Notes: generated by a model from the sequence alone, not told the origin. Counted from the first letter of the stretch, positions 1 through 19,160 are shown. The stretch: 58,521 bases of DNA from a virus (IMGVR_UViG_3300046167_000389:1-58521), one strand, 5' to 3'. A program made the numbers and translations.

Positions 1-323
1 CACAGATCTAGAGGGGTAGGGGGTGGCAGTCGCCCCGGTCGGCCCGACGATTAAAAAAATAGATTGATTTATGCCGATTTCTTTAAGTCATTGTTTTTAT
101 TATATTTTTTATTAATCTATGACTGAATAGTTCACGGGATGACTGTGATTTTAAAAGTAAAATCAATTGCTTAGATAAAACTGGCTCATAGAATACTGGC
201 AGAATATGCAATTAATCAGAATATTGTGACATAAAAGCACCAGCCGTGCCATCGATCCAGACCATCGTGCAGGGTGGCGGCTGGCTGACGAACATCAGAC
301 GCTGGGGCGGGAAGCGGCATTGT
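1..323 (+). repeat. Left direct terminal repeat (323 bp)
   Basis: Aligns without gaps to 58199-58521, with 14 substitutions counted by hand. Confidence 0.9.
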
Positions 324-619
324 ATACCCCCAGCCCTCTTTTCCTGCCTGCTTACCATCACCTGCTCGAACAGCCAGCCTGAGCAGCCTACACCAGCCCA
401 TGACCCATGATATGCTGCGCCTTGCTTGCCGCTCTGTGTGGCGTTCTCTGAGCCTGTGGCAGGGTGTTTGCCGCGAAATCAACATAGGCCTCACGCTCGA
501 TATAAGCGCCACTGAATAGGGGTAATTGTTTTGGGTATAATTATGCCATCTAACTGTTTTGCTACTGTGTGAGGCTTACAGCGCCTCTCAGAGCATACTA
601 CATTCCGGTCATCGGACAC

Positions 620-647
620 AAAAAAACCGGCTCGAAAGCCGGTCTCT
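620..647 (-). terminator. Intrinsic terminator ending the leftward early operon
   Basis: Minus strand ACCGGCT-TTCG-AGCCGGT followed by a T run. Confidence 0.85.
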
Positions 648-673
648 ATGGTTTGATTGTTTGGGCTGGCTGG

Positions 674-928
674 TCAGGAATGCCTCGAACCATCAGCCTC
701 GACGCCAACCCACATGAGGCCGGTGTTAACCATCACGCTTCCATCGTTGAAACCTAGTTGAGGCTGGGCTGATAGCAGGAACTCACAGAGCGGCTGCTTT
801 ACCTGATGCCAGTCATGTAGAGTGCAGATCGATATGATCTGTTCGTTGGTCAGATGCTCAAGTTCGCTGTCAGGCAAAGCTTCAAGGCTGACGGCTGCGG
901 GGCGGTTTTGCGCTGCCAGATCCATCAT
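674..928 (-). CDS. Hypothetical early protein
   Basis: ORF; start trimmed to the ATG overlapping the stop of the upstream ORF. Confidence 0.6.
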   Translation of the reverse strand: MMDLAAQNRPAAVSLEALPDSELEHLTNEQIISICTLHDWHQVKQPLCEFLLSAQPQLGFNDGSVMVNTGLMWVGVEADGSRHS

Positions 929-1110
929 TTGATCCCCCAAGCCCAAGCATCGGCGGCGTGTGGCAAATAGCCGATTTCATCACGCACAAGGCTGTCGATG
1001 TCGGCATCACGCTCGATATCGATTGGCTCCTGCACTTCAGCGAATTGAACTTGGGCTGACCACTGAGCAGCCTGTGTGCCGGTGGTGGTTTCGAGAAATA
1101 GTTTTTCCAT
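925..1110 (-). CDS. Small acidic hypothetical early protein
   Basis: ORF translationally coupled on both sides. Confidence 0.6.
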   Translation of the reverse strand: MEKLFLETTTGTQAAQWSAQVQFAEVQEPIDIERDADIDSLVRDEIGYLPHAADAWAWGIK

Positions 1111-1196
1111 CAGGATATACCCCAGATTAAATTGATAAGATTAATTGCGAACAGGATCGCAACCGTTGAGGCAGCGGCTCGATTGAGCCACCGCAT
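1110..1196 (-). CDS. 28-aa hydrophobic peptide (MRWLNRAAASTVAILFAINLINLIWGIS)
   Basis: Read by hand; TGATG overlap with the next gene; single TM-like stretch. Confidence 0.5.
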   Translation of the reverse strand: MRWLNRAAASTVAILFAINLINLIWGIS

Positions 1197-1213
1197 TTTT
1201 TTGATTGGATCGA

Positions 1214-1936
1214 TCACGACAGGTAACCGGCGCTGCGCTGACCACCGGAAACGCCAGAGCGTAGGCCTACACGATCACCTGCGCTGCGCCCTGCCTTCGA
1301 TGCACCTGCGCTTCGGTTGCTGGTGTGACGCCGTCCACCTGAGCGCAGCCGTGGGAACTCTTTGCGGAATGCATCATCCAGCGCACGGTCAGCCACTATT
1401 ACCAGCGCCGTGCCGTTCGAGGCTTTGGGCTGCTCGACATTCGAGCGGCTTTCACGATGCATTTGTTCCAGCCGGTTACACAGGCGTGATGCCATAGCAT
1501 TCATAAAGCTGGACCGGATCGAGCGGGCGTGATGATAGAAGGCCTCTTCCTCATAATCTGCGGTGTGCTTATAGCTCAGGAACTCAAGTTCCATCGAAGA
1601 CTGCATCAGGCTGATCAGATACATTGCATTGTCTACTTTGTGTTGCTGGCCGAAGATCGTAAGTTTTGATCCGGTTGCTACCAATTTCACTTCACAGAAT
1701 GCTTGCAGACCGTACAGCGCACCCCAAACCGGATGCCTTACCTTTTTACCCAGCGACATGCTGTCTTTTGTGTATTCGGTCAGGCTGATGTCTAGCTCAG
1801 TCAGGGTGCAATTGTATTGGTCCTGAAGTGATTGCATGGCCTGAGCAGCGGCCACTGCCTCTGCCTCTGTACAGCCGTTTTCGACAGTGCGTTGGCTGAA
1901 TGCTTTAAGCTTTTTTAAGATTGATTGTTTGTCCAT
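1214..1936 (-). CDS. DUF2786-family phage protein
   Basis: N-terminal ILKKLKAF...GCTEAEAVAAAQAMQSLQDQYN resembles DUF2786; C-terminal GRSAGDRVGL. Confidence 0.75.
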   Translation of the reverse strand: MDKQSILKKLKAFSQRTVENGCTEAEAVAAAQAMQSLQDQYNCTLTELDISLTEYTKDSMSLGKKVRHPVWGALYGLQAFCEVKLVATGSKLTIFGQQHKVDNAMYLISLMQSSMELEFLSYKHTADYEEEAFYHHARSIRSSFMNAMASRLCNRLEQMHRESRSNVEQPKASNGTALVIVADRALDDAFRKEFPRLRSGGRRHTSNRSAGASKAGRSAGDRVGLRSGVSGGQRSAGYLS

Positions 1937-1962
1937 TGGATTGGTCCTTTTTGGTTGGTTGG

Positions 1963-2130
1963 TTATTGCTTTGGGATTTGGATGGTGTAGCGGGTTTGGG
2001 CGTGTTTGAAATAATAGACGCCGTCCTTTTCACCCATGAACATGAAGTCAAACTTCACGGCTTCCATGAAAGTCTCGAAAGCTTTTTCAGTGTTTGAGCT
2101 AGTGATGCGGGGTTCTCTAATGCCATACAT
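1963..2130 (-). CDS. 55-aa hypothetical early protein (MYGIREPR...IPKQ)
   Basis: Read by hand; GGAGG RBS upstream. Confidence 0.65.
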   Translation of the reverse strand: MYGIREPRITSSNTEKAFETFMEAVKFDFMFMGEKDGVYYFKHAQTRYTIQIPKQ

Positions 2131-2132
2131 GA

Positions 2133-2408
2133 TCACACCTCCACATAAACGATGGTGTCAGGCTTCAGGAATATTTCCTTGCAAACATCGTCAGCCGAAC
2201 TGCATGAGAAATTGGCAAAGGCTGGCATCCCATATTTTGATTTTGGGTTGTAGTGATTTCTTACAAATTCGCCTTTGGCGTTTGGCTTGCGTCTGAAATA
2301 TTCACCCTCTTTCACAGAGCGCAGCGCGACTGCCTGCATCCCGTTTTCCATCGTCATAATATCTGCCGCCATTTCATTGAGCAGGTTCAGGTTTGGTTCA
2401 TTGGTCAT
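2133..2408 (-). CDS. Hypothetical early protein
   Basis: ORF carrying the conserved leader motif and RBS. Confidence 0.75.
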   Translation of the reverse strand: MTNEPNLNLLNEMAADIMTMENGMQAVALRSVKEGEYFRRKPNAKGEFVRNHYNPKSKYGMPAFANFSCSSADDVCKEIFLKPDTIVYVEV

Positions 2409-2432
2409 TGGTCTCTCACTTTCGTTGGTTGG

Positions 2433-2491
2433 TAGGCTGTCTCATCAGTGACCGTTGCCTAAGCGATCAGACGGGCTGATGCCCGTTTCGA
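2433..2491 (-). ncRNA. Type II hammerhead ribozyme with pseudoknot (HH1)
   Basis: UC-GAAA-CGGGC(AUCA)GCCCG-UC^-UGAUCG(CUUAGGCAA)CGGUCA-CUGAUGA-GA; loop I UAGGC pairs with the 3' GCCUA; complete catalytic core. Confidence 0.88.
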
Positions 2492-2493
2492 TT

Positions 2494-2647
2494 TAGTCGT
2501 TTTCTTCGTTTTCTTTTTCGGTTGCTTTCCAATCTTCAAAGCAGTCAGCGCAAAGCAACTCGTTTGGGGCAGGGTGATAAAATCCCTGCACCCCATGACC
2601 GCACCCAGCGCAATAAGTTGTTCCATCTGTTCTCTTGTCCATTTCAC
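2494..2647 (-). CDS. Small hypothetical protein, probably frameshifted
   Basis: An alternative frame ends DCFEDWKATEKENEEND-stop just before HH1. Confidence 0.45.
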
Positions 2648-2654
2648 CTACCCC

Positions 2655-2897
2655 TTAAAATGGAATTTCATTGCGGTTCATGTCACGCTCACAAAAGCTG
2701 AAACAAACTGTGACGGGCTGCTTTAAACTTGAAATCAAAGCTTGCATTGCAACCGCATCGAAATATGCATCTTCAAGGTTGGCTGGATATTCACCGGCAT
2801 ATTCGCCGTGGTTGTATTCGTCTGCCTCATAATAGTGGGCCTGACTGGTGCTATCTTGAAATCTTAAAGAATTGATTTGGTTTGGTTCATTGGTCAT
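2655..2897 (-). CDS. Acidic hypothetical early protein
   Basis: ORF with leader motif; shares its MTNEPN start with the 2408 ORF. Confidence 0.7.
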   Translation of the reverse strand: MTNEPNQINSLRFQDSTSQAHYYEADEYNHGEYAGEYPANLEDAYFDAVAMQALISSLKQPVTVCFSFCERDMNRNEIPF

Positions 2898-3131
2898 TGG
2901 TCTCTCCAGTTCGTTGGTTGGTGTTCAGGCACAGATGCCCGTCACCCCTGTTAACATGTCTGAATTAATTATGTCCACAATAAACTGCCAATATACCGCG
3001 ATAAGTTAACAGGCCTGTAGAGCGCATATAAGCGCCACTGAGTGCGTTAACAGTTTCTGCCACTTAGAGTTCATGAAATCTGCTAGACCCCACTCAGCGG
3101 CGATTTTCGCTTTTTTCGGGGTAATTTTGCC

Positions 3132-3161
3132 AAAAAAAAGGCCCGTCCGAAGACAGGGCCC
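3132..3161 (-). terminator. Intrinsic terminator
   Basis: GGCCCTGTC-TTCG-GACGGGCC followed by T8. Confidence 0.85.
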
Positions 3162-3182
3162 AGTTCAGGGAGAATTTACTAG

Positions 3183-3358
3183 TCAGCCGGTGGCTTTTTC
3201 CAGCCGGTCAATGGACCGGTTTAGCTTGGCTGCTTTTCGTTGCAATGCCAGCAACCGGCGTCGTCTCAGTTCGACGGCTGCGGGCTGGGGTGGTGGCTGC
3301 ATATGAGAACTGGCCCAGTCATAAAATCTGACGGCTTATGTTTGAAGCTTTTGCCCAT
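3183..3358 (-). CDS. Small basic coiled-coil protein (frameshift in a T homopolymer)
   Basis: MGKSFKHKPSDF joins YDWASSHMQ...LEKATG if one T is added. Confidence 0.45.
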
Positions 3359-4259
3359 CACGCTGCCTCCAGAAAACGGTTGTCCGAAATCCATTTATTA
3401 ACTTCTAATTCACGCTGCATCATATTAGCTGCGCGGTTTTGATTGCGGCATCAGTCTGACGCAGAGCGAAGCCGTTTCGATCATCGGCATAGGTGGCATA
3501 ATTGGTCCAAGCAGATACCAGAGCGAATTTGTTTTTACCTCTGACTGAGGCCTCTGACTGATACAGCGAGAACATTTTGTCTGCTTTGTTTTCTACCTGC
3601 CGCTTGCTGTCGGGGTTGGGCTTTGGAGCCATCATAGAGTTGAGCAGCGCCTTTACTGTGTCATCGGTCAGGCTGGTTTGGGCAAATACTTTCAGCCGTG
3701 CGCTGTCAGCGTAAAAATCGTTCTTCGCTGTCCGAAGCTGTTTGATAAAACCTTCCATAGAAAACTGGCTGCTATTCCTACGGCGCACCTTCGAGTGTTC
3801 TCCCGATACCATCCCATTGAGGCAAAACGCATCTATCGCGCCGAATAGCGTTGTGTTCGAGCCAGAGCCACCATCGATCGAGTGCAAGGCAATGATGCGC
3901 TGCTTGATGGTTGTTTGGTGTTCGTCGGTTTCAATCTGTGTTGCGATAGATGGGAATTGAACATCCATCATTCCAAAAGCACCATTTCTGCCAGACTGAA
4001 ATCTAAGCTGCGCGCCTTCAGTATCGGCTGGGTCCATGTTCTCGGTCACCTGTTGCCAGACGCCCTCAAAAAATGATCGGTGGCTGGCGCATGAAAACGT
4101 GTCTCCCACATGCCCCAGTACTTTTCCGGTGTTACCGTCGATCACAAATTTGTGCCGGTCCTGTCGGCTGGCCTCAAACACCGGATCGAAGTCTAAAGTG
4201 GTTGGCAGTTCGAGGTCTTGGCTGAAGTTTTGAAAATCTAACATATTTCTCTCTTTCAT
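3358..4259 (-). CDS. DUF932-like phage protein (3' frameshift)
   Basis: Motifs IIALHSIDGGS and AIDAFCLNGM; true C-terminus probably NRAANMMQRE...LEAA in the shifted frame. Confidence 0.75.
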
Positions 4260-4284
4260 TGATTGGTTGGTCTGTTCGTTGGTT

Positions 4285-4343
4285 GCTGACTGATCGTCAG
4301 ACCGAAGGCATCACCCTCCGATAACGGCCCAAAGGCCGTTTCA
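4285..4343 (-). ncRNA. Second type II hammerhead-like ribozyme (HH2, variant stem II)
   Basis: GAAA-CGGCC(UUUG)GGCCG-UU^-AUCGGAGG(GUGAUG)CCUUCGGU-CUGACGA; begins right after the upstream stop codon; the 10.1/11.1 positions are U/U. Confidence 0.7.
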
Positions 4344-4559
4344 CTATGCAACCATAAACAGGCGCTCTTGCGCCTCTGCAATTTGCCACTGCTTCATAGA
4401 CCGGCCCTCGAAAATCGGCACGATGCGGTCATTACGCTCGACAACGATATAATTGCATTGATCCAGCCGATAGCCGCGCAGCGCGTGGTCAAGGCGCTTT
4501 TCGTTTGAGTAGGATTTGGCTGATTTCAATTTGATGGCGCTGCGATTACGTTTCTGCAT
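4344..4559 (-). CDS. Hypothetical early protein
   Basis: Start moved to the ATG after AAGGACCAATCAA. Confidence 0.7.
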   Translation of the reverse strand: MQKRNRSAIKLKSAKSYSNEKRLDHALRGYRLDQCNYIVVERNDRIVPIFEGRSMKQWQIAEAQERLFMVA

Positions 4560-4671
4560 TTGATTGGTCCTTTTCATTTTCATTTTGTGTCTGCTCGTTA
4601 AGCCAGACGTTTATGCTTTCAATTTCACCGAAGAATAAATCGTCGGGCATTTCCCTCAAGTCGTTTGACAT
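4546..4671 (-). CDS. 41-aa acidic peptide (MSNDLREMPDDLFFGEIESINVWLNEQ...)
   Basis: Read by hand; AAGG upstream. Confidence 0.5.
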   Translation of the reverse strand: MSNDLREMPDDLFFGEIESINVWLNEQTQNENEKDQSNAET

Positions 4672-4762
4672 TCTTGAACCTTTTTTGCTGTCAGTTAAAA
4701 ATGATGCTCAAAACATCGAGCCAGCACGATAAAAACCCGTACAAGGGCGAAGAAATATCTGA

Positions 4763-4972
4763 TTAGCGCACCGCCTTAATTAGGTGGTTTTCCATAGTTA
4801 TGATGCCAAACCATTCTCTGCCTTTTCCGGTGATATGTGGGCGGTTGGCTACAGTCAGTTCGCCATCGCCACGATACTGAGGGCCAAATAGGCTGGTCTC
4901 TATATACGCGAGCGGCTTGCCTACGTTTTCTTTGCAAGCTTTCTTGGTGGGATAATTTGCTATCATTGTCAT
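4763..4972 (-). CDS. Hypothetical early protein, first gene of the leftward operon
   Basis: ORF with leader motif downstream of a promoter. Confidence 0.75.
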   Translation of the reverse strand: MTMIANYPTKKACKENVGKPLAYIETSLFGPQYRGDGELTVANRPHITGKGREWFGIITMENHLIKAVR

Positions 4973-5027
4973 TTTATTGGTCCTTTTCGTTGGTTGGTTG
5001 ATAGGCGCAAATCAAGCGCCTGTCAGA

Positions 5028-5057
5028 AGTCTACAGGAAGCCGCTTAATAAATGCAA
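5028..5057 (-). promoter_or_regulatory. Leftward early sigma70-type promoter
   Basis: TTGCAT-N18-TAGACT. Confidence 0.6.
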
Positions 5058-5255
5058 CAGTTAAATTGCGAACTAATAACCTGACTAATTGGTCAACTAA
5101 CGATTTTAAAAAATCATTTTTTATTTTCTCACCTACCTTCACCTACGTCAGGTGACTACATGTAGTTGCAATATGGTCCATATATACTCAGTGAAGGTAT
5201 GATTTGTTCGCGCAGGGAAATTTTTTGATTTTAGTCTGACTGTTAACTTATTTGA

Positions 5256-5285
5256 TTGACAACCTGTTAACTGCTGTAGTAGACT
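5256..5285 (+). promoter_or_regulatory. Rightward early sigma70-type promoter
   Basis: TTGACA-N18-TAGACT; predicted start site falls at the leader motif. Confidence 0.65.
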
Positions 5286-5317
5286 ACTTACTCAACCAAC
5301 TAACAAGGACCAATCAA

Positions 5318-5494
5318 ATGAAAGCTACAGCAATACATCACTTAATGAATGACTACTTGGATAACCATACTCTGGTTAAGGCTTGGCGTGTGCTGGACTA
5401 CGTGCGGAAGTATCCTACTGCACTCAGTGGCCTTAACCGCACTGAGCTGGCTATCTACAAGGCCATCGTCAACAACTGCGGCGAGGAGATGTAG
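5318..5494 (+). CDS. Small hypothetical early protein
   Basis: ATG after AAGGACCAATCAA. Confidence 0.7.
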   Translation: MKATAIHHLMNDYLDNHTLVKAWRVLDYVRKYPTALSGLNRTELAIYKAIVNNCGEEM

Positions 5495-5495
5495 A

Positions 5496-5834
5496 ATGCA
5501 AGCTAGTATTAAAATCACTCAGCGTATGCTTAATAAGTCCATCATCGATGCTAACAAGTCAGTGGTGGCATTCGCCAAAGAGTATCTGCCATACGACTAC
5601 GATCACATATCTACCCTGCCAAGCAGGAAGCTGGTTTTTACAGGTGTATGGACACACGCCGATAGCTTACCTGTTCCGGTACGCCTGTATCTAAGACCTC
5701 GCGGTGATAGGCTGCTATCTATCGGCAGTTTAAAGCTGTTTGCAAAGGCCGGTGATACTGTAACCTTCAGCCCAGCCTCTGACCCTTCCAACTACCAACT
5801 GGAGCTAGGTCTGATCGAAGGAGAGGCGGCATGA
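5496..5834 (+). CDS. Possible stand-alone B3/EcoRII-N-like DNA-binding domain protein
   Basis: KSIIDA...VRLY..RGDRLLSI.SLK.FAKAGDTV resembles N-terminal domains of MvaI/BcnI-family proteins (by eye). Confidence 0.45.
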   Translation: MQASIKITQRMLNKSIIDANKSVVAFAKEYLPYDYDHISTLPSRKLVFTGVWTHADSLPVPVRLYLRPRGDRLLSIGSLKLFAKAGDTVTFSPASDPSNYQLELGLIEGEAA

Positions 5835-6223
5835 GTGGATGCGGAAGCACTCTAGACTTTGAGTACATAAAAGCAATTATTCGCTACAACCAGATGGATA
5901 AGAAAAAGGTAGTTTATCTTAACTATCATGGTGACCTCCTGAAACTTCAAGAGGAAGTCAGTATGAATGGTAAAAGGTATATTGGATACCGCTGCCTAAG
6001 CTCAATTGATCCATTTAACCGCTGGAACCTTAACAAACATTTCATAGGTAAATGGACTACTGGAACGAAGGTAGAATTTGTACGTGACGGTGAGAAGGTT
6101 CTATTTGCCGGTCTCTCATCTCCACGGTTGGAAGAGCTAACTTCAGACATGACCGGCATGTTGGAAGTGTGGAACCTAAACATCCAGAGGTATGAACAAA
6201 CTACTGAGAGGTGTGCGGCATGA
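5831..6223 (+). CDS. Hypothetical protein
   Basis: Coupled ORF with RBS. Confidence 0.65.
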   Translation: MSGCGSTLDFEYIKAIIRYNQMDKKKVVYLNYHGDLLKLQEEVSMNGKRYIGYRCLSSIDPFNRWNLNKHFIGKWTTGTKVEFVRDGEKVLFAGLSSPRLEELTSDMTGMLEVWNLNIQRYEQTTERCAA

Positions 6224-6534
6224 AACTCTATACCAACAACCAAGGACAGTGGTCAGGCACTCAGGCTGATGCTCGCAAGCGTTTTAAGAATGACATGCGC
6301 CTAGTCGAGGTTCCGGTAGACAAGCCCAATCTGCTTGCCTTCCTGAATGATAACGCAGTGGGTTCTTTCGAGGCTCTTGGTCACAAGCCAGAGCCAAACC
6401 CTGATCAACTATCCCCAATCGCAACAAGCTGGGTTTCTTGGGCCTTAGAGCGCCTACAGCACGGCCAGAAGAAGGACGCAGAAGAGATGCTTATCAAAGG
6501 TCTCAAGCTACAGAAGGAGATGGCTAATGGTTAA
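6220..6534 (+). CDS. Hypothetical protein
   Basis: Coupled ORF upstream of the integrase. Confidence 0.65.
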   Translation: MKLYTNNQGQWSGTQADARKRFKNDMRLVEVPVDKPNLLAFLNDNAVGSFEALGHKPEPNPDQLSPIATSWVSWALERLQHGQKKDAEEMLIKGLKLQKEMANG

Positions 6535-7663
6535 AGCTCCCTACGTCAGGCCGCGCAGGTTAAGTAATGGGTGGGTCTACGACATCAGGCCTACTGATGA
6601 AGTGCTAGAGACTTTCCCGCATCTGAATGTTAAGCCACGGGAAAACTATACCTGTATTAGAGATGCCAATGCCCGTGGCTTTGAGATTAAGCGTCTGTTC
6701 GAGGCTCACAAAGCCGGTGAAGAAGTAGAGGTACGAGCAGACAGCCGCTCTGTCGCTGCGCTGGTGGACTACTACAAGGACAGCATGGCTTATACAAACA
6801 TCAAGGCCGCTTCTACCAAGCGGTCCTACGATGGTCATCTCAGTCATGTCCAACGTGTACACATAGGCAGTAAACCGTTCAGTAAGATGTTTGTGTCACA
6901 GGTGGATTACGAATACGCACAAAGATTGTGGTTACACATACAAGATGACGTAAGTACACACAAAGCCAACCACACATTCAAGGTGCTGAAGCTAGTATGG
7001 AACGAAGGTTTACGCGCAGGGAAAGTTAAATCTAACCCGTTCTCCTTAGTCAGGATACCCAAGCTACCGGACAGGCAGGTTATGTGGACCGTCGATCAGA
7101 TCAAGGGCATGGTGAAGTACTGTGATGAGCAGGGCTATCCAAGCATGGGTACTATGATCGTCATGTGTTATGAGTTCTGCCAGCGTCCGGTGGATGTACG
7201 CACTATGAAGTGGTCTAACATCGATGGGCGTACTGGTGTTAGTAACTTCATTCAGCAAAAGACCGGCAAGCAGATGTCTATCAAGGTAACCAACGCCGTT
7301 CAGGACAGGTTACATCTACATCAGCACCGTAACTCAGACGATTACATCTTCGCCTACGAGAATACTGGGCGTCCATATTCTGACGATAGATGTAATAAGT
7401 TCTTTCGTAAGCTGGCTGATGGTTATGGGCTACCTGAAGTGCCTCTACAAGGCAGGTTTAATAAAGATGGCAGTCAGATGTACTCTACGATCTGGTTAGC
7501 TGACTTACGACGAACTGGTATAACCCATGCCAGTCAGTCTGGCTGCTCTGACAGAGAGTTGATGGCTCTCTCAGGCCACAAGAACCCTCAGATGCTGGTT
7601 GTATACGCAGTAGAGGGCGAGATTGAATCTACCAATGCAAATATTAAACGAGGACTATTATAA
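6527..7663 (+). CDS. int: Tyrosine integrase
   Basis: Catalytic motifs QRPVDV, QQKT, ADLRRTG, LSGHKNPQMLVVY. Confidence 0.92.
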   Translation: MVKAPYVRPRRLSNGWVYDIRPTDEVLETFPHLNVKPRENYTCIRDANARGFEIKRLFEAHKAGEEVEVRADSRSVAALVDYYKDSMAYTNIKAASTKRSYDGHLSHVQRVHIGSKPFSKMFVSQVDYEYAQRLWLHIQDDVSTHKANHTFKVLKLVWNEGLRAGKVKSNPFSLVRIPKLPDRQVMWTVDQIKGMVKYCDEQGYPSMGTMIVMCYEFCQRPVDVRTMKWSNIDGRTGVSNFIQQKTGKQMSIKVTNAVQDRLHLHQHRNSDDYIFAYENTGRPYSDDRCNKFFRKLADGYGLPEVPLQGRFNKDGSQMYSTIWLADLRRTGITHASQSGCSDRELMALSGHKNPQMLVVYAVEGEIESTNANIKRGLL

Positions 7664-8407
7664 ATGAATCACGAACAAATTACTGTTCAGTATGTACGGC
7701 ACTCAGGTGATGACCTCTCAGTCGTAGACGCGGCGAGAGTAAGCTATGACGCTAAGAGTGAGGCTCTGGGTTATACTGGTAAAGAAGGTGGACCTATGGT
7801 TCCTGAGCTACATGATAAGGATAAGAAGCTCATTCGGTATCTGGCTGATCATAAGCACTACTCACCATTTAACCATGCCTTTGTCACTTTCAGGTGTACC
7901 GCGCCGTTGTTCGCTATGGCTCAACTCAAGAAGAGCGAGTACATGCCGTGGAATGAGATAAGCCGCCGGTACGTGGACAGTGAGCCTGAGGTCTACTGGC
8001 CGAATGAATGGAGAGGCCGTCCTCGCAAGGGTAACTCTAAACAAGGCAGCGAGGGCCACATCACTATCTCAGATGATATCATAGAGGATTCCTATGATGG
8101 CGCTATGCTCAGTTACCGGACTCTACTTGAAGTAGGTGTAGCTCCAGAGATGGCTCGCATGGTTCTGCCGCAGTCAATGCTATCTTCGTGGATCTGGAGC
8201 GGTAGCTTAAAAGCCATCAGCAAGATGTGCAGCCTACGGTGTGCCTCTGACACGCAGTATGAGAGCCGTGTGGTAGCCAATCAGATTAGCGACATCATGC
8301 GAGGGCTGTTCCCAGTAAGCTGGGCTGCGCTGATGGGAGAGTCTTACCCGTACATACGGCCAATGAGTGACCAAGAGAGGCAGAGAGCCAAGGAGAGAGC
8401 GGCATGA
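7664..8407 (+). CDS. thyX: FAD-dependent thymidylate synthase
   Basis: AARVSY, HYSPFNH, WNEISRRYV, EMARMVLPQS. Confidence 0.93.
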   Translation: MNHEQITVQYVRHSGDDLSVVDAARVSYDAKSEALGYTGKEGGPMVPELHDKDKKLIRYLADHKHYSPFNHAFVTFRCTAPLFAMAQLKKSEYMPWNEISRRYVDSEPEVYWPNEWRGRPRKGNSKQGSEGHITISDDIIEDSYDGAMLSYRTLLEVGVAPEMARMVLPQSMLSSWIWSGSLKAISKMCSLRCASDTQYESRVVANQISDIMRGLFPVSWAALMGESYPYIRPMSDQERQRAKERAA

Positions 8408-8556
8408 GTAACGACATCAGAATCACAGAACTGGAAGAGCATCCAGACGGGTCAGCGACTATACAGATAGACCTTAGCCCTGAAGTCTTCGCGGAGATAT
8501 TCCAAGCCGGTTTTATAGCCTTGGTGAAGAGAGGTCTAGATGAAGAAGACAAGTAA
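8404..8556 (+). CDS. 50-aa hypothetical protein (MSNDIRITELEEHPDGSA...)
   Basis: Read by hand; ATGA overlap with thyX. Confidence 0.6.
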   Translation: MSNDIRITELEEHPDGSATIQIDLSPEVFAEIFQAGFIALVKRGLDEEDK

Positions 8557-8743
8557 AAAGCAGTACGCAATAACGTACTTGCATTATGTACTCGCACTTC
8601 GCGGCACAATTAAAGAAGCTGTGGAGTATGCTAAACAAGCTGAAAAGGATAGGGAGATATTGAGTGACATGAGCCAGAGAGATTTCTTAGGTCATGTCTC
8701 TGATTATATATCTATCTCAGATGTCACTGGTCAGGATGTGTAA
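8540..8743 (+). CDS. Hypothetical protein
   Basis: ORF with GAGG RBS. Confidence 0.55.
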   Translation: MKKTSKKQYAITYLHYVLALRGTIKEAVEYAKQAEKDREILSDMSQRDFLGHVSDYISISDVTGQDV

Positions 8744-8890
8744 TGATTAAGCTCTGCTACTACTGCTCACGTACCCACCAGCTACTGGCTCACAAGACTA
8801 TCCATAAGTCGGTGGCTGAACAGGAAATGAGTTATATCAACGGCTCTGACTTCTACATTCGTTTGGAATCAGTGAACGGATACTGATCAC

Positions 8891-8936
8891 AGTGGCAAAA
8901 GTGGCAGACTGCCACTCTGGAATCTGCCATGCCACT
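8891..8936. repeat. GTGGCA/TGCCAC direct and inverted repeats, probable integrase arm sites
   Basis: AGTGGCA twice, then TGCCAC, TGCCAT, TGCCAC, next to the attP core. Confidence 0.55.
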
Positions 8937-8978
8937 TTACCCATGTCGGAGGCATTTTATTGTTTAATATCAGTAATT

Positions 8979-9021
8979 TGGCTCCGGCGGTAGGGATCGA
9001 ACCTACGACCAATTGATTAAC
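8979..9021 (-). mobile_element. attP core: 3' half of tRNA-Asn(GTT)
   Basis: GTTAATCAATTGGTCGTAGGTTCGATCCCTACCGCCGGAGCCA covers anticodon, T-arm, acceptor strand and CCA; no 5' half; close to the integrase. Confidence 0.88.
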
Positions 9022-9107
9022 CGGACCCATTGATTTCATTGGATAATTCGGGATATCTGCAAAATGCCTGTTAACACTAATTGTTTTTATATGCACCTAA
9101 TTAAGTG

Positions 9108-9135
9108 TTGACAGATGAGAATAACTATATAAGCT
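9108..9135 (+). promoter_or_regulatory. Promoter for the primase operon
   Basis: TTGACA-N16-TAAGCT followed by a 5' hairpin and the leader motif. Confidence 0.55.
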
Positions 9136-9199
9136 GACGCTGTCTCTTTGGAGAGGCAGAACCCCAAACCAACTACCAACCAACTACTATGAGTGACCA

Positions 9200-9968
9200 A
9201 TGACCTACCTCGAACAACTAGAAGTCATCAAGGCTATCCCTATACGGGAAGGAGACACTAAAGTAATCCAGTGTCCTTTCTGTGGTGGCTTGAAGAAGCT
9301 TTCTGTTTCTAAAGTAGACGGCCAGCTAAAGTGGTATTGCTTTAGAGCAAGCTGTAATGGCAAAGGCATATACCAAGGCAAGAGAAGTCTACAGGCAGCT
9401 AAGAATTATCTAGCAGATGCTGTACAGCAAAAGACTAGAGAGCCAAAGCCTATTCCTTCGATTACTACTCCAGCCCGTAATCATCAGCCAGCACTCGACT
9501 ATCTAAAGCAGAACAATAGCCTAGAGGCTTATGAAGCTGGATACATAGATGTACGATACGCACCGGCAGAGGACAGAGTGCTATTCTGCATAGACACAGG
9601 CGCTGTAGGTAGATCACTAAAGAAGTATGGACCTAAGTGGCTTTCTTACGGTGTGCTGGAAGAGGGCATACACGTAGGTGTTGGATCGTCAGCCGTTCTC
9701 GTTGAGGATACACCATCAGCCTGTTCTGTTAGCAGAATTAACGGCCTTGTAGGAGTAGCTTTACTAGGTACTCGCGTAAGTAATTGCTTAAAAAAGTCGC
9801 TAAATAAATACGATGCTTGTTATTTGGTCCTTGACAAAGACGCTTCGTCTAAGGCTATAACAATAGGCTAGGAGTATAGATAAAAGCTTACTGATTAGGT
9901 TTACTTCTGAGGATTTAAAAAACCTGTCAGTTAACCAGCTTGTAGAGGTGTTAAGTAATGAACTGTGA
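9200..9968 (+). CDS. DNA primase (Zn finger + TOPRIM), frameshift near 9868
   Basis: CPFC...YCFRASC, VLVED, VALLGT, LDKDA; C-terminus continues in a shifted frame to the stop at 9968. Confidence 0.85.
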
Positions 9969-10264
9969 AAAATTTGAATGTATGAGGTCACCTCATATGT
10001 GTCTTGTAACACATCACTGGACAGGTTCGTATCTTAGAAAGCCCTACGGCGCTCACTACAGAATATCTCTCCGCATGCTTAGTAAGAAAGTTCTCAGAAC
10101 TACTTCTGATTGGACGGGTATAGATGTTTGGTGCAGCCCAATAGTTGCCTTAGCTCCACCATATCCCTCAACATAATTACCAGAATAAACTATGAAGGGG
10201 CCATTGTGGTCATTATATTCGTCTACGAAACCAGTACAGACGTTAAAGCAAAGGGAATGGTAAA

Positions 10265-10471
10265 ATGAAAGCTAGAGGAATAGCGATTATTGACATGTCA
10301 ATTGATGGGGGCTTCAAGGAAGCCGCCGCAGAAGAAGTAGCATTGGAAAAACTGATAGCAGACTACTGCAAGGGCAACCCACGCATAGTACACTATCAAG
10401 TTGAGTTGAGGGAGCGCAGAGGTGAACCCGGAGCCGTTGATCTGAATAAGATGAAGTTCAGAGCTAACTAA
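10265..10471 (+). CDS. Hypothetical protein
   Basis: ORF followed by a terminator. Confidence 0.65.
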   Translation: MKARGIAIIDMSIDGGFKEAAAEEVALEKLIADYCKGNPRIVHYQVELRERRGEPGAVDLNKMKFRAN

Positions 10472-10496
10472 CTAAAACTAAACGAAAAAGAAATTC

Positions 10497-10524
10497 AGCC
10501 CTGTCTTCGGATGGGGCTTTTTTT
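10497..10524 (+). terminator. Intrinsic terminator
   Basis: AGCCCTGTC-TTCG-GATGGGGCT followed by a T run. Confidence 0.85.
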
Positions 10525-10583
10525 ATTTAATTGGCTGTGTTACAATAGCACCTTATTAATACGCTAACAGCCAAGAGAGTTAA

Positions 10584-11798
10584 ATGGACCAATCATTGCT
10601 TAAAAGCTGCCTCAGTAATTCGTTCTATAGCGAAAACAAGGCAAAGCTTAGACCATCCCTTTTTGATGATACACTCAAAGAAGTATACACAACCATCGTA
10701 TCAATGCACGATGCATTTGAAAAAGACCTCACCCCACTAGAGCTATTTAGTTACTGGAAGGCCAACAATCCTACTAGCACAGGAGCTTGGACAGCCGACA
10801 TCCAAGACCTAATCAATTCAGTATCCAATGCCGAAGCGATCGATGATGTAGTGGCTGTTGATGTCATCGAAAACCTGTGGCGTCAGCATATAGGCTTAGA
10901 CATAGCCACCCTTGGCATAAAGATGTCTGAGGGTGATGCGGCTGCAATGGACTTACTAAAGTCTCTTCTAGACCGTGTCTCTGAGGGCTACATGCCTGAT
11001 GACTTTGCTGATGAAGTAACTGATGACATCGATGAACTACTGGCTGTTGTCAGTAATGATAACCGTTTCAAGTTCAACATCGACACACTCTCTAGAGAGG
11101 TCTACGGAATTGGTAGAGGAGAGTTTGGTGTAATAGCTGCCTACTCTAATGTCGGTAAGACTGCGTTTGCTATTAGTCTGTGTGCTGCACCGGCAGGTTT
11201 CTGCGCTCAAGGTGCTAGAGTAGGTTACATAGCCAACGAAGAGATTGGTAAGCGTACCAAGTTACGTGCGGTACAAGCGTATACCGGCATGACCAAAGAT
11301 GAGATTGCTTTTGACAGCCGTGGAGCCGCTGCACGGTATGCTGGTATTAAAGAGAGGCTGACCTTTGTCGATGCTCAAGGCTGGGATATCCAGATGCTTG
11401 AAGCGTATCTCAATAAGAAGAAGTTCGATGTGGTCATCGTCGATATGGCCGACAAGATTGCCCTAACTCAGCAATTTAACTCTGGGCATGAACGCCTGAG
11501 AGAACTCTACTACCGTCTACGTGAGGCCGCTAAGAAGTTTGACTGCGCTATACTAGGGCTATCACAAGCATCCGCTGAAGCTGAAGGCAAGACCCGTATC
11601 ACTATGTCCATGATGGAAGGCAGTAAGCTGGGTAAGGCGGCTGAGAGTGATGTCATGCTAGGCATAGGCCGAATGAATGATCCTGATAATCCTGATGACC
11701 CTAGTCGATGGATCACAGTGATGAAGAATAAGATCAGTGGCTGGCACGGTACAGTTCTCTGTAACCTGAACTCACAGACCTCTCGCTATGAAGTGTGA
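10584..11798 (+). CDS. DnaB-like (SF4) replicative helicase
   Basis: Walker A AYSNVGKT, Walker B VVIVD, LSQA, KNKISG. Confidence 0.9.
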   Translation: MDQSLLKSCLSNSFYSENKAKLRPSLFDDTLKEVYTTIVSMHDAFEKDLTPLELFSYWKANNPTSTGAWTADIQDLINSVSNAEAIDDVVAVDVIENLWRQHIGLDIATLGIKMSEGDAAAMDLLKSLLDRVSEGYMPDDFADEVTDDIDELLAVVSNDNRFKFNIDTLSREVYGIGRGEFGVIAAYSNVGKTAFAISLCAAPAGFCAQGARVGYIANEEIGKRTKLRAVQAYTGMTKDEIAFDSRGAAARYAGIKERLTFVDAQGWDIQMLEAYLNKKKFDVVIVDMADKIALTQQFNSGHERLRELYYRLREAAKKFDCAILGLSQASAEAEGKTRITMSMMEGSKLGKAAESDVMLGIGRMNDPDNPDDPSRWITVMKNKISGWHGTVLCNLNSQTSRYEV

Positions 11799-11934
11799 TG
11801 ACCTGCCGCCGCACCTTGCGCTGCTTCTGGAAGAAGTTGGCGTAATTAACCCTGAGCCTGAGCCACAGCCTGTAGTGCGTGACCTCTCATTTAAACGTCC
11901 AGAGTTGGATGAGAATGGGGATCCACCGTGGTGA
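11788..11934 (+). CDS. 48-aa Pro-rich hypothetical protein
   Basis: Read by hand; overlaps the helicase stop and the polymerase start. Confidence 0.5.
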   Translation: MKCDDLPPHLALLLEEVGVINPEPEPQPVVRDLSFKRPELDENGDPPW

Positions 11935-14090
11935 AATGGCTTGTATTGGACTTAGAGACAACGGTTAAGCGAATAGATGGCCGAATAGATAACAGCCCTA
12001 AGAACCCCGACAATCGGTGTGTGTCTGCTCACTACGGCTGGCTTGGGCTGGAGACTGTAGATGAGGTTCACACAGACCTGTGGCATCACAAAGAACTACA
12101 CTCGCCTGATGGTATAGACCGCCTGAAGCAGCACCTCGCTGAAGCAGACGGCATGATATGCCACAACGTGAAGTTCGATGCTGAGTGGCTGCTAGAGATG
12201 GGCTTTGAATTGCCGCCTATCGTCAGAGATACAATGATAACAGAATACCTGTTAGCCAAGGGCCAGCGAAGACTGCTTAGTCTGAAAGAGAGTGCATTAC
12301 GTCGAAAGACTGCGAGCTTAAAGAAGTCTGACTTAGTAGATGAGCTATTTAAAGGCGGCACATGCTTTTCTGAGATGCCGTTGGATGTAGTAGTCGAGTA
12401 CGCAGAGGCTGACGTTAAGGCCTGTGGTGAGTTGTATATAGCGCAGCAAGACATCTTAGCCCGTGAGCATAATCTCAGCCTTAAAAAGGTCATTCCCTTT
12501 ATGAATGAGATGCTGTTGTTTCTCTGTGAGATAGAGATGAACGGGGTAAAGATTGATAAGGCTGCTCTAGCAGAGGTTGAGGCGCAGTTTACCGAAGAGA
12601 AGGCTTCCCTAGAGATAGACCTGAAGCGTATTGTTGAACAGGTGATGGGTGACACTCCCATTAATCTAAATTCAGGTGATGATATGACCAGAGTGATCTA
12701 CTCGCGGGAAGTCATCGACAAGGCCATACACAAGCAGACGTTTAACATCGGAACCAACGAAGCCGGTAAGTCACTCAGACCGCCGTTTGATTTTATAAAG
12801 TACCCTAATAAATTTTATGATGCAGTACGGACCACCACCAGAGTTGTTATGAAGCAGTCTGCCTCTCAGTGTCCTGACTGTTCTGGTTCCGGTACTATAC
12901 AGAAGTACAAGGTTAAGACGAAGACGAAGCTAGGTAAGAAGTATCGTGTGCAGGGTGATCCTTATAAGAATAGGTCACGGTGTACGGTATGTAATGGCGT
13001 AGGAGCGATATACACCTCGACTGGAATAGTTGCTGGCCTGAAGATGGCTCCTAGTACAGCCTACGATGCCAGTATCGGCGGGTTTAAGTCTGACAAGGTT
13101 ACTATACAGCGTCTGATTGAACAGGCCGAGCGCAAGGATAATGCCACCGCCGTAGAGTTCCTGACTAAGCTGTCTCGCCTAAGTGCTGTGTCTGTTTATC
13201 TGGATAGCTTTGTGGCTGGTATTAAGAGAGGTACTCGCGCAAGCGGGTTTCTACATGCAAACTTCAATCAGTGCATTGCCTCTACTGGTAGACTGTCGAG
13301 TGGCGGTGGCATGTCGTTGAACTTACAGAACCAGCCTAAGAGAGGTTTCCCTGTTCGTAAGTGCTTTGTCAGTCGGTTCCCAAACGGTCTACTTTTAGAG
13401 TCGGACTACTCCGCTCTTGAATTTAGAACGGCGTGTGAGTTGTCGAGAGACAGTCAAGGCTTGGCAGACGTTTTAGAGGGTAAGGACATACACAGACAGA
13501 CTGCAAGTATATGTCTACAGAAGCCGCCTAACGAAGTCAGTAAGGATGAGCGTCAGGGTCATAAGTGGGCCAGCTTCCAGCCACTATTTGGAGGCACTGG
13601 AGCCGGTCAACCAGAGCATATCAAGGCCTACTTCAGCCGCTTCTATGAGATATACGAGGGTATATACGGCTGGCATCAGTCACTAATGAATGGCACTTTA
13701 AAAGATGGCACAGTAACCACACCTAGCGGGCGTCAGTATTTCTGGCCGAATGTCACTAGAACCAAAGCAGACAGGGTATCGAATGCTACTCAGATACTGA
13801 ATTATCCAGTACAAGGCTTCAGTGCAGACTTAGTACAATTAGCTTGTATAAGGGCGTTTAGGCTGTTTAAGGAGAGAAAACTACAATCAAAACTGATACT
13901 TACGGTACACGACAGTTTAGTGTGCGATACACATCCTGATGAGGTGGATCAGGTCAGAGAAGTTCTAACTGAAGCTATGACTAAGGTCAGCGAAGAGTCA
14001 AAAGAACGGTTTGGCTACTCCCTTATTGTGCCGCTCGACATAGAAATAAGTCGCGGTAAAAACTGGCTAGATCAGGAAGAATATGTTTGA
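11928..14090 (+). CDS. Family A DNA polymerase with DnaJ-like Zn-finger insertion
   Basis: Exonuclease DLETT and HNVKFD; polymerase STGRLSS, DYSALE, NYPVQG, TVHDS; CPDCSGSG and CTVCNGVG insert typical of HMO-2011-type phages. Confidence 0.95.
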   Translation: MVKWLVLDLETTVKRIDGRIDNSPKNPDNRCVSAHYGWLGLETVDEVHTDLWHHKELHSPDGIDRLKQHLAEADGMICHNVKFDAEWLLEMGFELPPIVRDTMITEYLLAKGQRRLLSLKESALRRKTASLKKSDLVDELFKGGTCFSEMPLDVVVEYAEADVKACGELYIAQQDILAREHNLSLKKVIPFMNEMLLFLCEIEMNGVKIDKAALAEVEAQFTEEKASLEIDLKRIVEQVMGDTPINLNSGDDMTRVIYSREVIDKAIHKQTFNIGTNEAGKSLRPPFDFIKYPNKFYDAVRTTTRVVMKQSASQCPDCSGSGTIQKYKVKTKTKLGKKYRVQGDPYKNRSRCTVCNGVGAIYTSTGIVAGLKMAPSTAYDASIGGFKSDKVTIQRLIEQAERKDNATAVEFLTKLSRLSAVSVYLDSFVAGIKRGTRASGFLHANFNQCIASTGRLSSGGGMSLNLQNQPKRGFPVRKCFVSRFPNGLLLESDYSALEFRTACELSRDSQGLADVLEGKDIHRQTASICLQKPPNEVSKDERQGHKWASFQPLFGGTGAGQPEHIKAYFSRFYEIYEGIYGWHQSLMNGTLKDGTVTTPSGRQYFWPNVTRTKADRVSNATQILNYPVQGFSADLVQLACIRAFRLFKERKLQSKLILTVHDSLVCDTHPDEVDQVREVLTEAMTKVSEESKERFGYSLIVPLDIEISRGKNWLDQEEYV

Positions 14091-14115
14091 TTACCGCGCT
14101 TAACTAATGTATAAT
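14087..14115 (+). promoter_or_regulatory. Sigma70-type promoter
   Basis: TTGATT-N17-TATAAT. Confidence 0.7.
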
Positions 14116-14141
14116 GTAAGTTCACTTTTAAGGAAATAAGT

Positions 14142-14961
14142 ATGACTGACTTAGTATTGCAAGATAACAGCTTAACGATTGAAGAAATTGCGGCACAATT
14201 AGGTGCGGCCTCTACATCATCAGGGCCGTCAATCCCTGCGGTAGGAATGAATTACGATGGCGAAATGGGTCCAATGGGCGCATTCTACTTGAAGACTGGT
14301 CAAGACCAAGTCTACGCCACAGAGAATGTAAGGTTCAGGGCATTTAGTAATCACCTACAGTACCAGCACTGGGGTGATGATGGCCTAGTAAACAAATCCT
14401 TACTGGTGAAAAATCAGCGCGAGGAAGCCCGTGATCAATTGGGCGGCATTATGTGTGGGATGCCTACTTATGAGCAGTCTATTCAAATGTCTCCTCAAGA
14501 GCGTGAGAAATACAAAGACATTGACCGTTACCGCATTATTAGAGGTATAATTAACTATACAGGCACAACCTCAGATGGCCGTGAGGTTACTATCGAAAAC
14601 CAGCCTTGTATAATGTCTCTTAAACGTAAAAATTACGGACCCTTTCTACCACGATGTTTTAAAGAAGCTGCCTCGCGGAATGAATCTTTGGGATTTTGAA
14701 AGCATTCTATCCAAAGACACGCAAACAAGCCCTAAAGGTAAGAAGTACTACGTCATGCACTTTGCTCCGCAGTTTGGTAGTCCAATTATAATGGATGATG
14801 TCACTCACGATAGCTTAAAGCATGTCACGGGTCTTGTTCTTGCTGAGAATAAGCGGATTGAGGAAGCCTATAAAGAAGCCAGTATGCGAGCCGTCGATGA
14901 GGCTGAAGCTGCTAGAATTATGGATGAGGTTAATCCCTTAGAAGCGGATTACCGCGTATAA
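14142..14961 (+). CDS. Probable ssDNA-binding-like replication protein, one gene split by a frameshift near 14650
   Basis: Two overlapping ORFs join into one; position after the polymerase; acidic tail. Confidence 0.55.
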
Positions 14962-15731: not shown

Positions 15732-16099
15732 CCCCACAGAGTGCCAAAGCGAAGGGCCGAAGACATCAGCAATGGGTCAGAGATAAAATTCTCGCTCTCT
15801 TTCCCAAAGCACTCCTCCCAGATGATGTCAGAAGCACTTCTATGGGCGCTGGCGGCGAAGACATACAATTAAGTCCAGCCGCCAGACGCCTGTTCCCATA
15901 CTCTGTAGAGTGCAAGGCCTTTAAATCATTCGCAATCTACAAGGTGATGGACCAAGCGGCAGATAACTGTCCGAAAGGTGCGGAGCCAATTGCCATTATT
16001 AAAGCTGATCGCCAGAAACCTCTGGCTGTCATGGACGCAGACCATTTCTTTAAATTGATTGGGAAAAATAGTGCCAAAAATAAACCTGCCCGAAAATAG
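15722..16099 (+). CDS. Holliday junction resolvase-like nuclease
   Basis: AKAKGRR, GAGGEDI, SVECK. Confidence 0.75.
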   Translation: MAITPQSAKAKGRRHQQWVRDKILALFPKALLPDDVRSTSMGAGGEDIQLSPAARRLFPYSVECKAFKSFAIYKVMDQAADNCPKGAEPIAIIKADRQKPLAVMDADHFFKLIGKNSAKNKPARK

Positions 16100-19144: not shown

Positions 19145-19160
19145 GCATTTACACTAAAAT
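19132..19160 (+). promoter_or_regulatory. Sigma70-type promoter of the candidate sRNA
   Basis: TTGACC-N17-TAAAAT. Confidence 0.7.

Follow-up and report, generated by a model that had tools for sequence, protein, structure and literature searches.

Why do several unrelated genes of one phage carry the same short leader directly in front of their start codons, and what could recognise it? This question is raised by IMGVR_UViG_3300046167_000389:1-58521 (hereafter the window, that is, the whole stretch of 58,521 nucleotides (nt) that was analysed), which is the whole genome of an HMO-2011-type phage on a single contig. A two-box leader precedes genes of this phage which are unrelated to each other (DUF7168/DUF2786, DUF932, primase, and small open reading frames (ORFs)). 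A sequence-only reading had regarded it as a C/A-rich translational enhancer acting at the RNA level, which at the same time serves as target of a small RNA and defines a regulon. By computational analysis we located a candidate gene for such a small RNA on the plus strand at about 19167-19241 (~75 nt, 5′ end estimated), antisense to both boxes of the leader, and found that RNA and leaders change together among related phages. From these sequence comparisons we consider it likely that a multi-target antisense RNA jointly lowers the translation of the leader-bearing genes, the leader being the mRNA half of a two-part system.

The composite leader was defined as CAACNAAC, a gap of 0-20 nt, ACCAAT, and then an ATG within 0-4 nt. 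For CAACNAAC-N0-20-ACCAAT, 13 overlapping matches representing 8 distinct sites were obtained in the window, while 0.03 were expected (100 first-order Markov simulations, largest value 1). The single elements are also enriched: GACCAAT occurs 19 times (6.05 expected) and CCAACCAAC with at most one mismatch 27 times (10.18 expected), and neither count was matched by any of 100 shuffles. Seven of the eight composite sites, all between 1934 and 9201 and on the coding strand, belong to leaders of non-structural genes, and the region of the structural genes (19237-58521) contains none, as had been noticed before. The eighth site (19181-19205) is located on the minus strand and is not followed by a usable start codon. 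Together with a copy consisting of box 2 only, leaders follow promoter regions at the gene starts 2897 and 4972 (minus strand) and 5318 and 9200 (plus strand), and are operon-internal at 1936, 2408, 4259, and 4559 (all minus strand; 4559 with box 2 only). Positions and ORF starts thereby confirm the eight motif copies described earlier on the coding strand at both sides of the divergence point. A partial motif before nrdJ (GGAGACCAATG, 17166-17176) was likewise recovered. All copies end 0-4 nt before an ORF-opening ATG on the coding strand or overlap it; the distance between leader and AUG is constant, that between leader and promoter is not. Because the leaders are found both promoter-proximal and operon-internal and always adjoin the start codon, they would act on translation and not on transcription. 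The genes 2133-2408 and 2655-2897 have the leader and the first codons (ATGACCAATGAACCAAACC) in common; their 5′ ends are paralogous.

The eighth composite copy lies at the junction of the replication genes and the late genes, and its opposite strand carries the candidate small RNA gene behind a promoter-like site. The predicted 5′ hairpin exposes in its loop GAUUGGUC, the antisense of box 2, and the 3′ side of this first stem is CCAUCCU, the antisense of the Shine-Dalgarno (SD)-like sequence GGAUGG. The following linker GUUGGUU is single-stranded and reads, together with the stem end, GUUCGUUGGUUG, which is antisense to box 1. A terminator hairpin of 12 pairs (19205-19234) with the loop UUUGGUUGG, a second anti-box-1 sequence, is followed by UUUUAUU. 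Neither the loop GAUUGGUC nor the linker GUUGGUU is paired in the predicted or the consensus folds. For the 75-nt RNA a minimum free energy of -35.8 kcal/mol was calculated (z = -5.37), and none of 200 shuffles was as stable.

For the comparison among phages, the window was placed by its DNA polymerase. It is close to four cultured members of subgroup III of the HMO-2011-type phages, because its nearest polymerase relatives are Roseobacter phage CRP-738 (75.9% identity) and CRP-235, CRP-212, and CRP-3 (51-56%); identity with HMO-2011 and HTVC033P is ~35%. A covariance model of the small RNA gene was run on the 26 IMG/VR loci whose sequence continues for 5.5 kb or more behind the polymerase gene. 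It located the small RNA gene on the plus strand in 25 of them, at a distance of about 5 kb downstream of the polymerase, 21 with E < 1e-3 and four with E 0.025-0.14; locus L054 gave no match. The model also matches CRP-738, CRP-3, and CRP-235, and in CRP-212 the gene was identified by eye at the same junction; in the GenBank records of all four phages it is unannotated. In the more distant HMO-2011-type phages CRP-1 and HTVC033P, the convergent junction leaves no space for the RNA, and HMO-2011 yielded only a 15-bit covariance match resembling a plain terminator. The system seems to be restricted to one polymerase clade, in which the window groups with CRP-738, CRP-235, CRP-212, and CRP-3.

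Among 14 aligned sequences, the consensus fold comprises 22 pairs with 96.5% of the cells paired, a value reached by none of 500 shuffles, and slid alignments as controls gave at most 58%. Changes on both sides of a pair were found in 7 of the 22 pairs, which 7 of 500 shuffles equalled. Invariant or nearly so are the first promoter hexamer (TTGACC in 13 of the 14 aligned relatives, TTGATC in one), GATTGGT, GTTCGTTGGT, and the terminator core, whereas the promoter spacer and the 5′ end vary. In CRP-235, CRP-3, and CRP-212, the second hexamers of the RNA promoter are TATAAT, TATAAC, and TAAAAC, respectively, at 17-18 nt. The RNA was assigned to the plus strand because this strand folds better in all 14 sequences (mean -35.1 vs. 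-23.3 kcal/mol), because it forms many G-U pairs that become A-C mismatches if read on the other strand, and because only here a T run follows the terminator. Two coding explanations of the locus were rejected: a plus-strand ORF of 163 amino acids (aa) at 19166-19657 is ruled out by 1- and 2-nt indels among the relatives, and a 13-codon minus-strand ORF at 19186, with an SD-like AGGA abutting its ATG, is opposed by promoter, T run, and G-U pairs on the plus strand. A search of Rfam at the gathering threshold and with E up to 10 gave no meaningful match to the RNA (best hit 23.1 bits with a cut-off of 55 bits, from an unrelated leader family).

Potential targets were scored by net cofold energy on start regions and by counts of exact complements. 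Each of the 9 best among 75 start regions of the window (-23.6 to -12.6 kcal/mol) contains the motif or its box 2; the tenth reaches -8.0 kcal/mol and the median is -3.6 kcal/mol. An RNAduplex scan covering the whole genome, in which the RNA body was compared with segments of 50 nt, was discarded due to its high background (mean -17.5, with many unrelated segments near -35). Most informative are the relatives, where linker and leader box 1 change together across at least five lineages, giving six seed/leader codes. The window combines the linker GUUCGUUGGUUG with box 1 CAACCAACGAAC. In loci L048 and L044, the linker UUUUAGUUGGUUAAU and the loop UUGGUU face box 1 TAACCAACTAA(A/G) in most leaders and AACCAAATG next to the start, and in L014 the linker UAAUUCGUUGGU faces AACCAACGAATTA. 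The corresponding pairs are CAAGUUAGAUAG and TATCTAACTTG or CTAACTTG (five leaders) in CRP-3, UUCUAGUUAGAAU and ATTCTAACT or TCTAACTAGAA (five leaders) in CRP-212, and UUUCAAGUUUAG and both TAAACTTGAAA and ACTAAACTT in CRP-235. The leader of the orthologous DUF932 gene follows the code of the respective lineage in the window, L048, L014, CRP-3, and CRP-212, and in the latter four it ranks first or joint first in matching among the start regions, or is the only ACCAAC leader listed. The DUF932 leader may be the primary target and also the source from which the RNA gene arose by inverted duplication.

The RNA of each phage was also compared with the start regions of the other phages. In a 5 × 5 table, start regions with a perfect complement of at least 8 nt to the RNA of the same phage numbered 8/34, 5/40, 2/36, 5/36, and 6/35, while combinations of different specificity groups gave 0-3, mostly through the loop seed TGACCAAA that the groups have in common. 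The seeds of the window and of CRP-738 are the same, and these two accordingly cross-match. Also, in a 4 × 4 table, cofold energies of -10 kcal/mol or below were obtained with the own RNA for 9/34 start regions of the window, 4/36 of CRP-235, and 3/36 of CRP-3, and for 0-1 between specificity groups. As judged from these comparisons, box 1 and the linker are the specificity part, and box 2 and the loop are more conserved. We regard pairing of the small RNA with the leaders as highly probable on this evidence.

Several observations weigh against this interpretation. The cofold ranking is partly circular, as the leaders were recognised by sequence shared with the RNA locus; the comparative test is therefore the real one. 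In it, the CRP-235 RNA scores 2/36 complements on its own start regions, the same as the RNAs of CRP-3 and CRP-212 there, and at -10 kcal/mol 2/40 start regions of CRP-738 score with their own RNA and 5/40 with that of the window. The sole leader seen in locus L013 mismatches its RNA linker, the leader at 5318 reaches only -6.6 kcal/mol, and L054 offers only a hand-picked candidate (loop UGUGGUC, leaders with GACCACA) lacking a clear terminator. Gene conversion between the leaders and their inverted copy, i.e. concerted evolution, could imitate covariation without any RNA pairing. A promoter scan of the entire window gave 11 sites compared with 26.7 in shuffles, so that the single promoter call is weak when taken alone. 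Contigs of four RNA libraries, mostly from relatives, do not cover 19144-19236, which is no evidence either way on expression. Representative bacterial genomes scanned with the polymerase yielded 5 loci, none of them recognisable as a prophage of this clade. That the RNA is made, that its pairing represses and does not activate, and that it has a role in immunity we infer from sequence. In the RNA data, a 45-nt contig piece lies at 19237-19281, and 13 public RNA runs are listed, all with small shares.

The leaders also have properties of their own. At positions -35 to -1, A+C amounts to 77% in the eight leaders and to 49% in 64 other start regions of the window, and the predicted mean unpaired probability is 0.61 vs. 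0.48 (one-sided Mann-Whitney p = 0.007). C/A richness, which the sequence-only reading had named, is not conserved: box 1 reads TATCTAACTTG, ATTCTAACT, or TAAACTTGAAA in CRP-3, CRP-212, and CRP-235. Conservation concerns instead the complementarity between the leaders and the RNA of the same phage. The C/A-rich enhancer is thus not supported in the form proposed; an enhancer function of the leader would be plausible by analogy with the ACA elements described in parts of PMC3879156, but since three relatives have a T/A-rich box 1, it cannot rest on C/A content. The other elements of the earlier proposal, namely action at the RNA level, targeting by a small RNA, and a regulon of non-structural genes, gained computational support from the conserved antisense RNA gene and the seed/leader covariation; "early" is deduced from gene position. 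Hairpins were found 5′ of four of the eight leaders, three of them as previously described and a fourth, CTGAC-TGATC-GTCAG, directly 5′ of the 4259 leader. In relatives, the hairpin of the primase leader maintains its pairing despite sequence changes (CTGTCTCT/AGAGGCAG, CTGTCCCT/AGGGGCAG, GGGGCC/GGCCCC, CGACCC/GGGTCG).

Based on the positions of the boxes and the predicted folds, we propose the following mechanism. The trans-acting, phage-encoded RNA of ~75 nt would be transcribed from its own sigma-70-like promoter. Its loop GAUUGGUC would pair with box 2 (GACCAAU), located between the SD sequence (GGAG/AGGA-like) and the AUG or over the AUG, and its linker GUUCGUUGGUUG with box 1 CAACCAACGAAC, 5-15 nt upstream. 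Loop contact would occur first and spread into linker and stem, thereby covering the whole ribosome binding site. At least 7-9 mRNAs from three transcription units would be addressed, i.e. those of two leftward operons, the first rightward gene, and the primase operon, and more weakly those of the helicase and nrdJ. Duplexes on the ribosome binding sites would lead to a joint drop in translation, possibly with mRNA decay coming after. Without the RNA, or with more targets than RNA molecules, the mRNAs would stay well translated and stable owing to their G-poor unstructured leader and their 5′-terminal hairpins. Repression is suggested because box 2 is positioned at the SD sequence and the AUG, box 1 just upstream, and because the RNA stem is antisense to an SD-like sequence.

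The same covariation would also be expected if the small RNA paired with the leaders and activated or stabilised the mRNAs, for instance by protecting the G-poor leader against RNase E or by resolving a structure. Some leaders are indeed partly paired in the predicted fold (mean unpaired probability 0.38 at 5318), but on average they are less structured than other start regions, leaving little to open. Furthermore, box 2 is located between SD sequence and AUG or over the AUG, and the RNA additionally bears an anti-SD-like stretch; a small RNA duplex at these positions normally blocks the 30S subunit. Activation thus appears improbable to us. Equally doubtful is that the leader is a mere good ribosome binding module spread by duplication or recombination, with 19167-19241 being a terminator pair with an inverted leader remnant and no regulation in trans. 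Duplication has occurred, as seen from the common leader and first codons of the genes 2133-2408 and 2655-2897, the leaders are A/C-rich and open, and expression of the RNA candidate is deduced from the genome alone; according to parts of PMC3879156, ACA-type elements enhance translation in enterobacteria. However, 25 of 26 loci would not retain an invariant first promoter hexamer, a 5′ hairpin showing compensatory changes, and exposed seeds if the locus were a remnant, nor would the seed have shifted, in five lineages, together with 2-6 separate leaders each, and box 1 is no longer C/A-rich in CRP-3, CRP-212, and CRP-235.

A protein could bind the leader instead, either as translational repressor or as DNA-binding regulator, and the antisense copy would then be a decoy on the 3′ untranslated region of the late transcript. 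A model for such a translational repressor is RegA of phage T4. The minus-strand late transcript would in fact carry the sense leader between the stop at 19237 and the terminator at 19144-19119, and several early ORFs have no known function. This explanation is nevertheless very improbable: promoter, T run, and G-U pairs are found on the plus strand, the changes in specificity are exact base complements as RNA-RNA pairing predicts, and the motif is fixed in position to the AUG, also inside operons, and not to promoters. Moreover, the promoters are already marked by a separate operator-like DNA motif, CTGTTAAC. It occurs six times in the window, exclusively in three early promoter regions (2.34 expected; 3 of 100 shuffles reach six), and one copy separates the two hexamers of the rightward promoter, likewise in CRP-738. 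CTGTTAAC is probably the operator of a putative protein repressor. No such box was found near the small RNA promoter by scanning the window.

For the multi-target antisense RNA, the role in the phage life cycle can be addressed tentatively. It may serve immunity or maintenance of lysogeny, like the c4 RNA of phage P1, beside a protein repressor acting on the CTGTTAAC boxes; the main alternative is a simple timer for the early-to-late shut-off. We favour immunity over the timer for the following reasons. The clade is temperate or carries an integrase: an integrase is encoded, and integration of the subgroup III phage CRP-3 into its host is reported in parts of PMC9038755. The RNA promoter has no CTGTTAAC boxes and could stay on in a lysogen, and the first gene of either arm is among the targets, as is the primase gene. 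CRP-3, CRP-212, and CRP-235, which share the host strain FZCC0040, bear three different codes, a pattern resembling the heteroimmunity of P1 and P7 (PMC12197685). Finally, the late operon (stop codon at 19237, terminator on the minus strand at 19144-19119) holds the small RNA gene within its 3′ untranslated region, and consequently RNA from late read-through would be a perfect antisense of the small RNA, possibly a sponge or an RNase III substrate. Taken together, these points allow the speculative idea of RNA-coded immunity in the subgroup III phages, in which one constitutive RNA would be the master repressor of an early regulon of several operons, the codes (seed together with all leaders) of related phages with a common host strain would have diversified into heteroimmunity groups, and late antisense RNA would neutralise the repressor after commitment to lytic growth. 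In locus L007, whose polymerase is 96% identical to that of the window, an insertion of ~60 nt with a long inverted repeat (7772-7830) directly follows the small RNA terminator.

Table 1. Positions of leaders, small RNA gene, operator-like boxes, and genome regions in the window, with net cofold energies (kcal/mol) and complements to the candidate small RNA.
Feature	Position	Strand	Gene or context	Pairing with small RNA
Leader CCAACCAACCAAAAAGGACCAATCCA then ATG	1937-1964	minus	gene 1214-1936 (DUF7168/DUF2786, 240 aa), internal in second leftward operon	-15.2
Leader CCAACCAACGAAAGTGAGAGACCAATG, box 2 overlaps AUG	2407-2432	minus	gene 2133-2408 (91 aa)	-16.2; 11-nt perfect complement
5′ hairpin (2927-2940) and leader CCAACCAACGAACTGGAGAGACCAATG	2896-2940	minus	gene 2655-2897 (80 aa), promoter-proximal	-23.6, best target; 12-nt complement
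5′ hairpin (4286-4300) and leader CAACCAACGAACAGACCAACCAATCA then ATG	4260-4300	minus	DUF932 gene 3420-4259	14-nt complement, longest in window
Leader AAAAGGACCAATCAA then ATG, box 2 only	4560-4577	minus	gene 4344-4559 (71 aa)	-15.1; 9-nt complement
5′ hairpin (5003-5021) and leader CAACCAACCAACGAAAAGGACCAATAAA then ATG	4973-5021	minus	gene 4763-4972 (69 aa, phrog_37117), first of leftward arm	-13.8
Promoter-like site TTGACA-18-TAGACT (5256-5285, CTGTTAAC in spacer) and leader CAACCAACTAACAAGGACCAATCAA then ATG	5256-5317	plus	gene 5318-5494 (58 aa)	-6.6
5′ hairpin (9140-9159) and leader CCAACTACCAACCAACTACTATGAGTGACCAATG	9140-9202	plus	primase gene 9200-9871	-15.1
Box 2 in first helicase codons (ATGGACCAATCA)	10584-10595	plus	possible weaker target	-13.9
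Partial leader GGAGACCAATGATG, box 1 degenerate	17166-17179	plus	before nrdJ	-12.6
Small RNA promoter-like site TTGACC-17-TAAAAT	19132-19160	plus	first hexamer in loop of minus-strand late-operon terminator (19144-19119)	
Candidate small RNA	19167-19241	plus	5′ hairpin, single-stranded linker, terminator	
CTGTTAAC boxes	2948-2955, 3005-3012, 3046-3053, 5240-5247, 5264-5271, 9068-9075			
Leftward arm, small genes	674-4972	minus		
Divergent control region	about 5000-5300			
Rightward arm	5318-19104	plus	integrase, ThyX, primase, helicase, DNA polymerase, exonuclease, MazG-like protein, nrdJ	
Structural and packaging genes, long block	19237-58018	minus		

The gene layout given in Table 1 was obtained from PHROG and Pfam scans of the window. 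Its two ends (1-323 and 58199-58521, 323 nt each) are 95.7% identical; they represent a terminal repeat or, alternatively, a circular overlap in an assembly of slightly different genomes. Relative to the close relative L002, which has an ORF of 642 aa, the nrdJ gene (17174-19104) is split over two frames near 17683-17750; one base at 17681 is absent from contigs of relatives in three RNA libraries, and the split is due either to a frameshift or to faulty assembly. On the minus strand at about 8981-9020, downstream of the integrase block, a tRNA-like 3′ end (T arm and acceptor stem) was detected, which is also present in L048, L044, and L026 and likely forms an attP core for integration into a tRNA gene, as judged from its sequence; ARAGORN found no whole tRNA in the window. 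A megablast search of 1-12000 against a phage collection gave no match. The 16-mer ATATAAGCGCCACTGA occurs twice in the window, near the left end (500-515) and in the second leftward promoter region (3026-3041). The neighbouring plus-strand ORF 3073-3306 (77 aa) was called mechanically, has no family match, and holds a terminator-like hairpin on the plus strand (3096-3111). It is probably not a gene; by its sequence features, the region around it looks like the promoter and operator region of the second leftward operon.

Most of the antisense RNAs described from phages control a single adjacent gene, whereas here one RNA appears to address many of the phage's own non-structural genes in trans through a shared leader code. 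The rewriting of the leader code several times among close relatives provides a natural experiment on how an RNA regulon changes its specificity while staying intact. As the system is present in four cultured phages with known hosts (CRP-738, CRP-3, CRP-212, and CRP-235), it is directly testable. We found no literature link between HMO-2011-type phages and a small RNA; the text of the main comparative paper (ISME J 2022) does not mention sRNA, non-coding, or promoter, and its supplements could hold annotations.

With respect to known systems, the candidate RNA resembles c4 and GcvB in mechanism and is a member of neither family. It is placed outside both because of missing homology, its own distant promoter, and its many targets. 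Rfam includes a c4 model, and the Rfam search gave no sequence or structure homology to c4 or GcvB. The c4 RNA, on which the original work is reportedly that of Citron and Schuster (1990), is cut from the transcript that holds its target, is located upstream in the same operon, and controls one operon (icd-ant). The CI RNA of satellite phage P4 is an RNA immunity factor which pairs with short repeated targets in early transcripts; it acts by ending transcription prematurely and is derived by processing of the very transcript that it targets. Unlike c4, the candidate RNA has its own promoter-like site, 10-17 kb away from the targets (1937-9202), and at least seven targets on at least three transcription units. 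In the portions of PMC12197685 and PMC8198154 dealing with it, c4 (P1/P7, immI) is described as a small structured RNA whose complementary sequences are thought to lie in loops and which blocks translation near the ribosome binding site; its specificity differs between related phages and underlies heteroimmunity, and it acts beside a protein repressor. In the candidate RNA, the target-complementary sequences are similarly predicted in a loop and a single-stranded linker, and pairing in silico takes place at the ribosome binding site, with box 2 positioned 0-4 nt from or over the AUG and box 1 just upstream of the SD sequence. The six seed/leader codes, of which three belong to phages sharing a host strain, would be a counterpart of c4 heteroimmunity at the level of the sequence basis.

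GcvB has a single-stranded, G/U-rich pairing region and C/A-rich targets. The window agrees with this in its G/U-rich seed and A+C-rich leaders, as does the close clade, whereas box 1 is T/A-rich in CRP-3, CRP-212, and CRP-235. GcvB is a host RNA for amino-acid transport genes, while the candidate is phage-encoded and has two seeds (loop and linker), with one pairing site at the AUG. As a multi-target small RNA silencing its regulon, GcvB pairs immediately upstream of the SD sequence at a site that itself stimulates translation (parts of PMC3879156).

On the side of the leaders, the closest likeness is offered by the SAS/ESAS motif of Cluster K mycobacteriophages. According to parts of PMC3203893, the asymmetric motif 5′-GGGATAGGAGCCC is located immediately upstream of the starts of a subset of genes from different families, about half of the copies have an inverted repeat just upstream, most copies share one orientation while one copy per genome lies on the other strand, and it is left open whether RNA or protein binds. 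The 7-8 leaders of the window likewise precede unrelated genes (DUF7168, DUF932, primase, and small ORFs), four of eight have a hairpin at their 5′ side, and the eighth composite copy is the antisense of the small RNA gene; the likeness is one of analogy and not of homology. Unlike SAS, the leaders read CAACCAAC...GGACCAAT and not GGGATAGGAGCCC, and host phylum and phage type are different. A further difference is that a partner RNA gene was identified here by computation, whereas none is reported for SAS in those parts of PMC3203893, which suggests that in Cluster K mycobacteriophages an RNA gene might sit at the reverse-oriented SAS copy.

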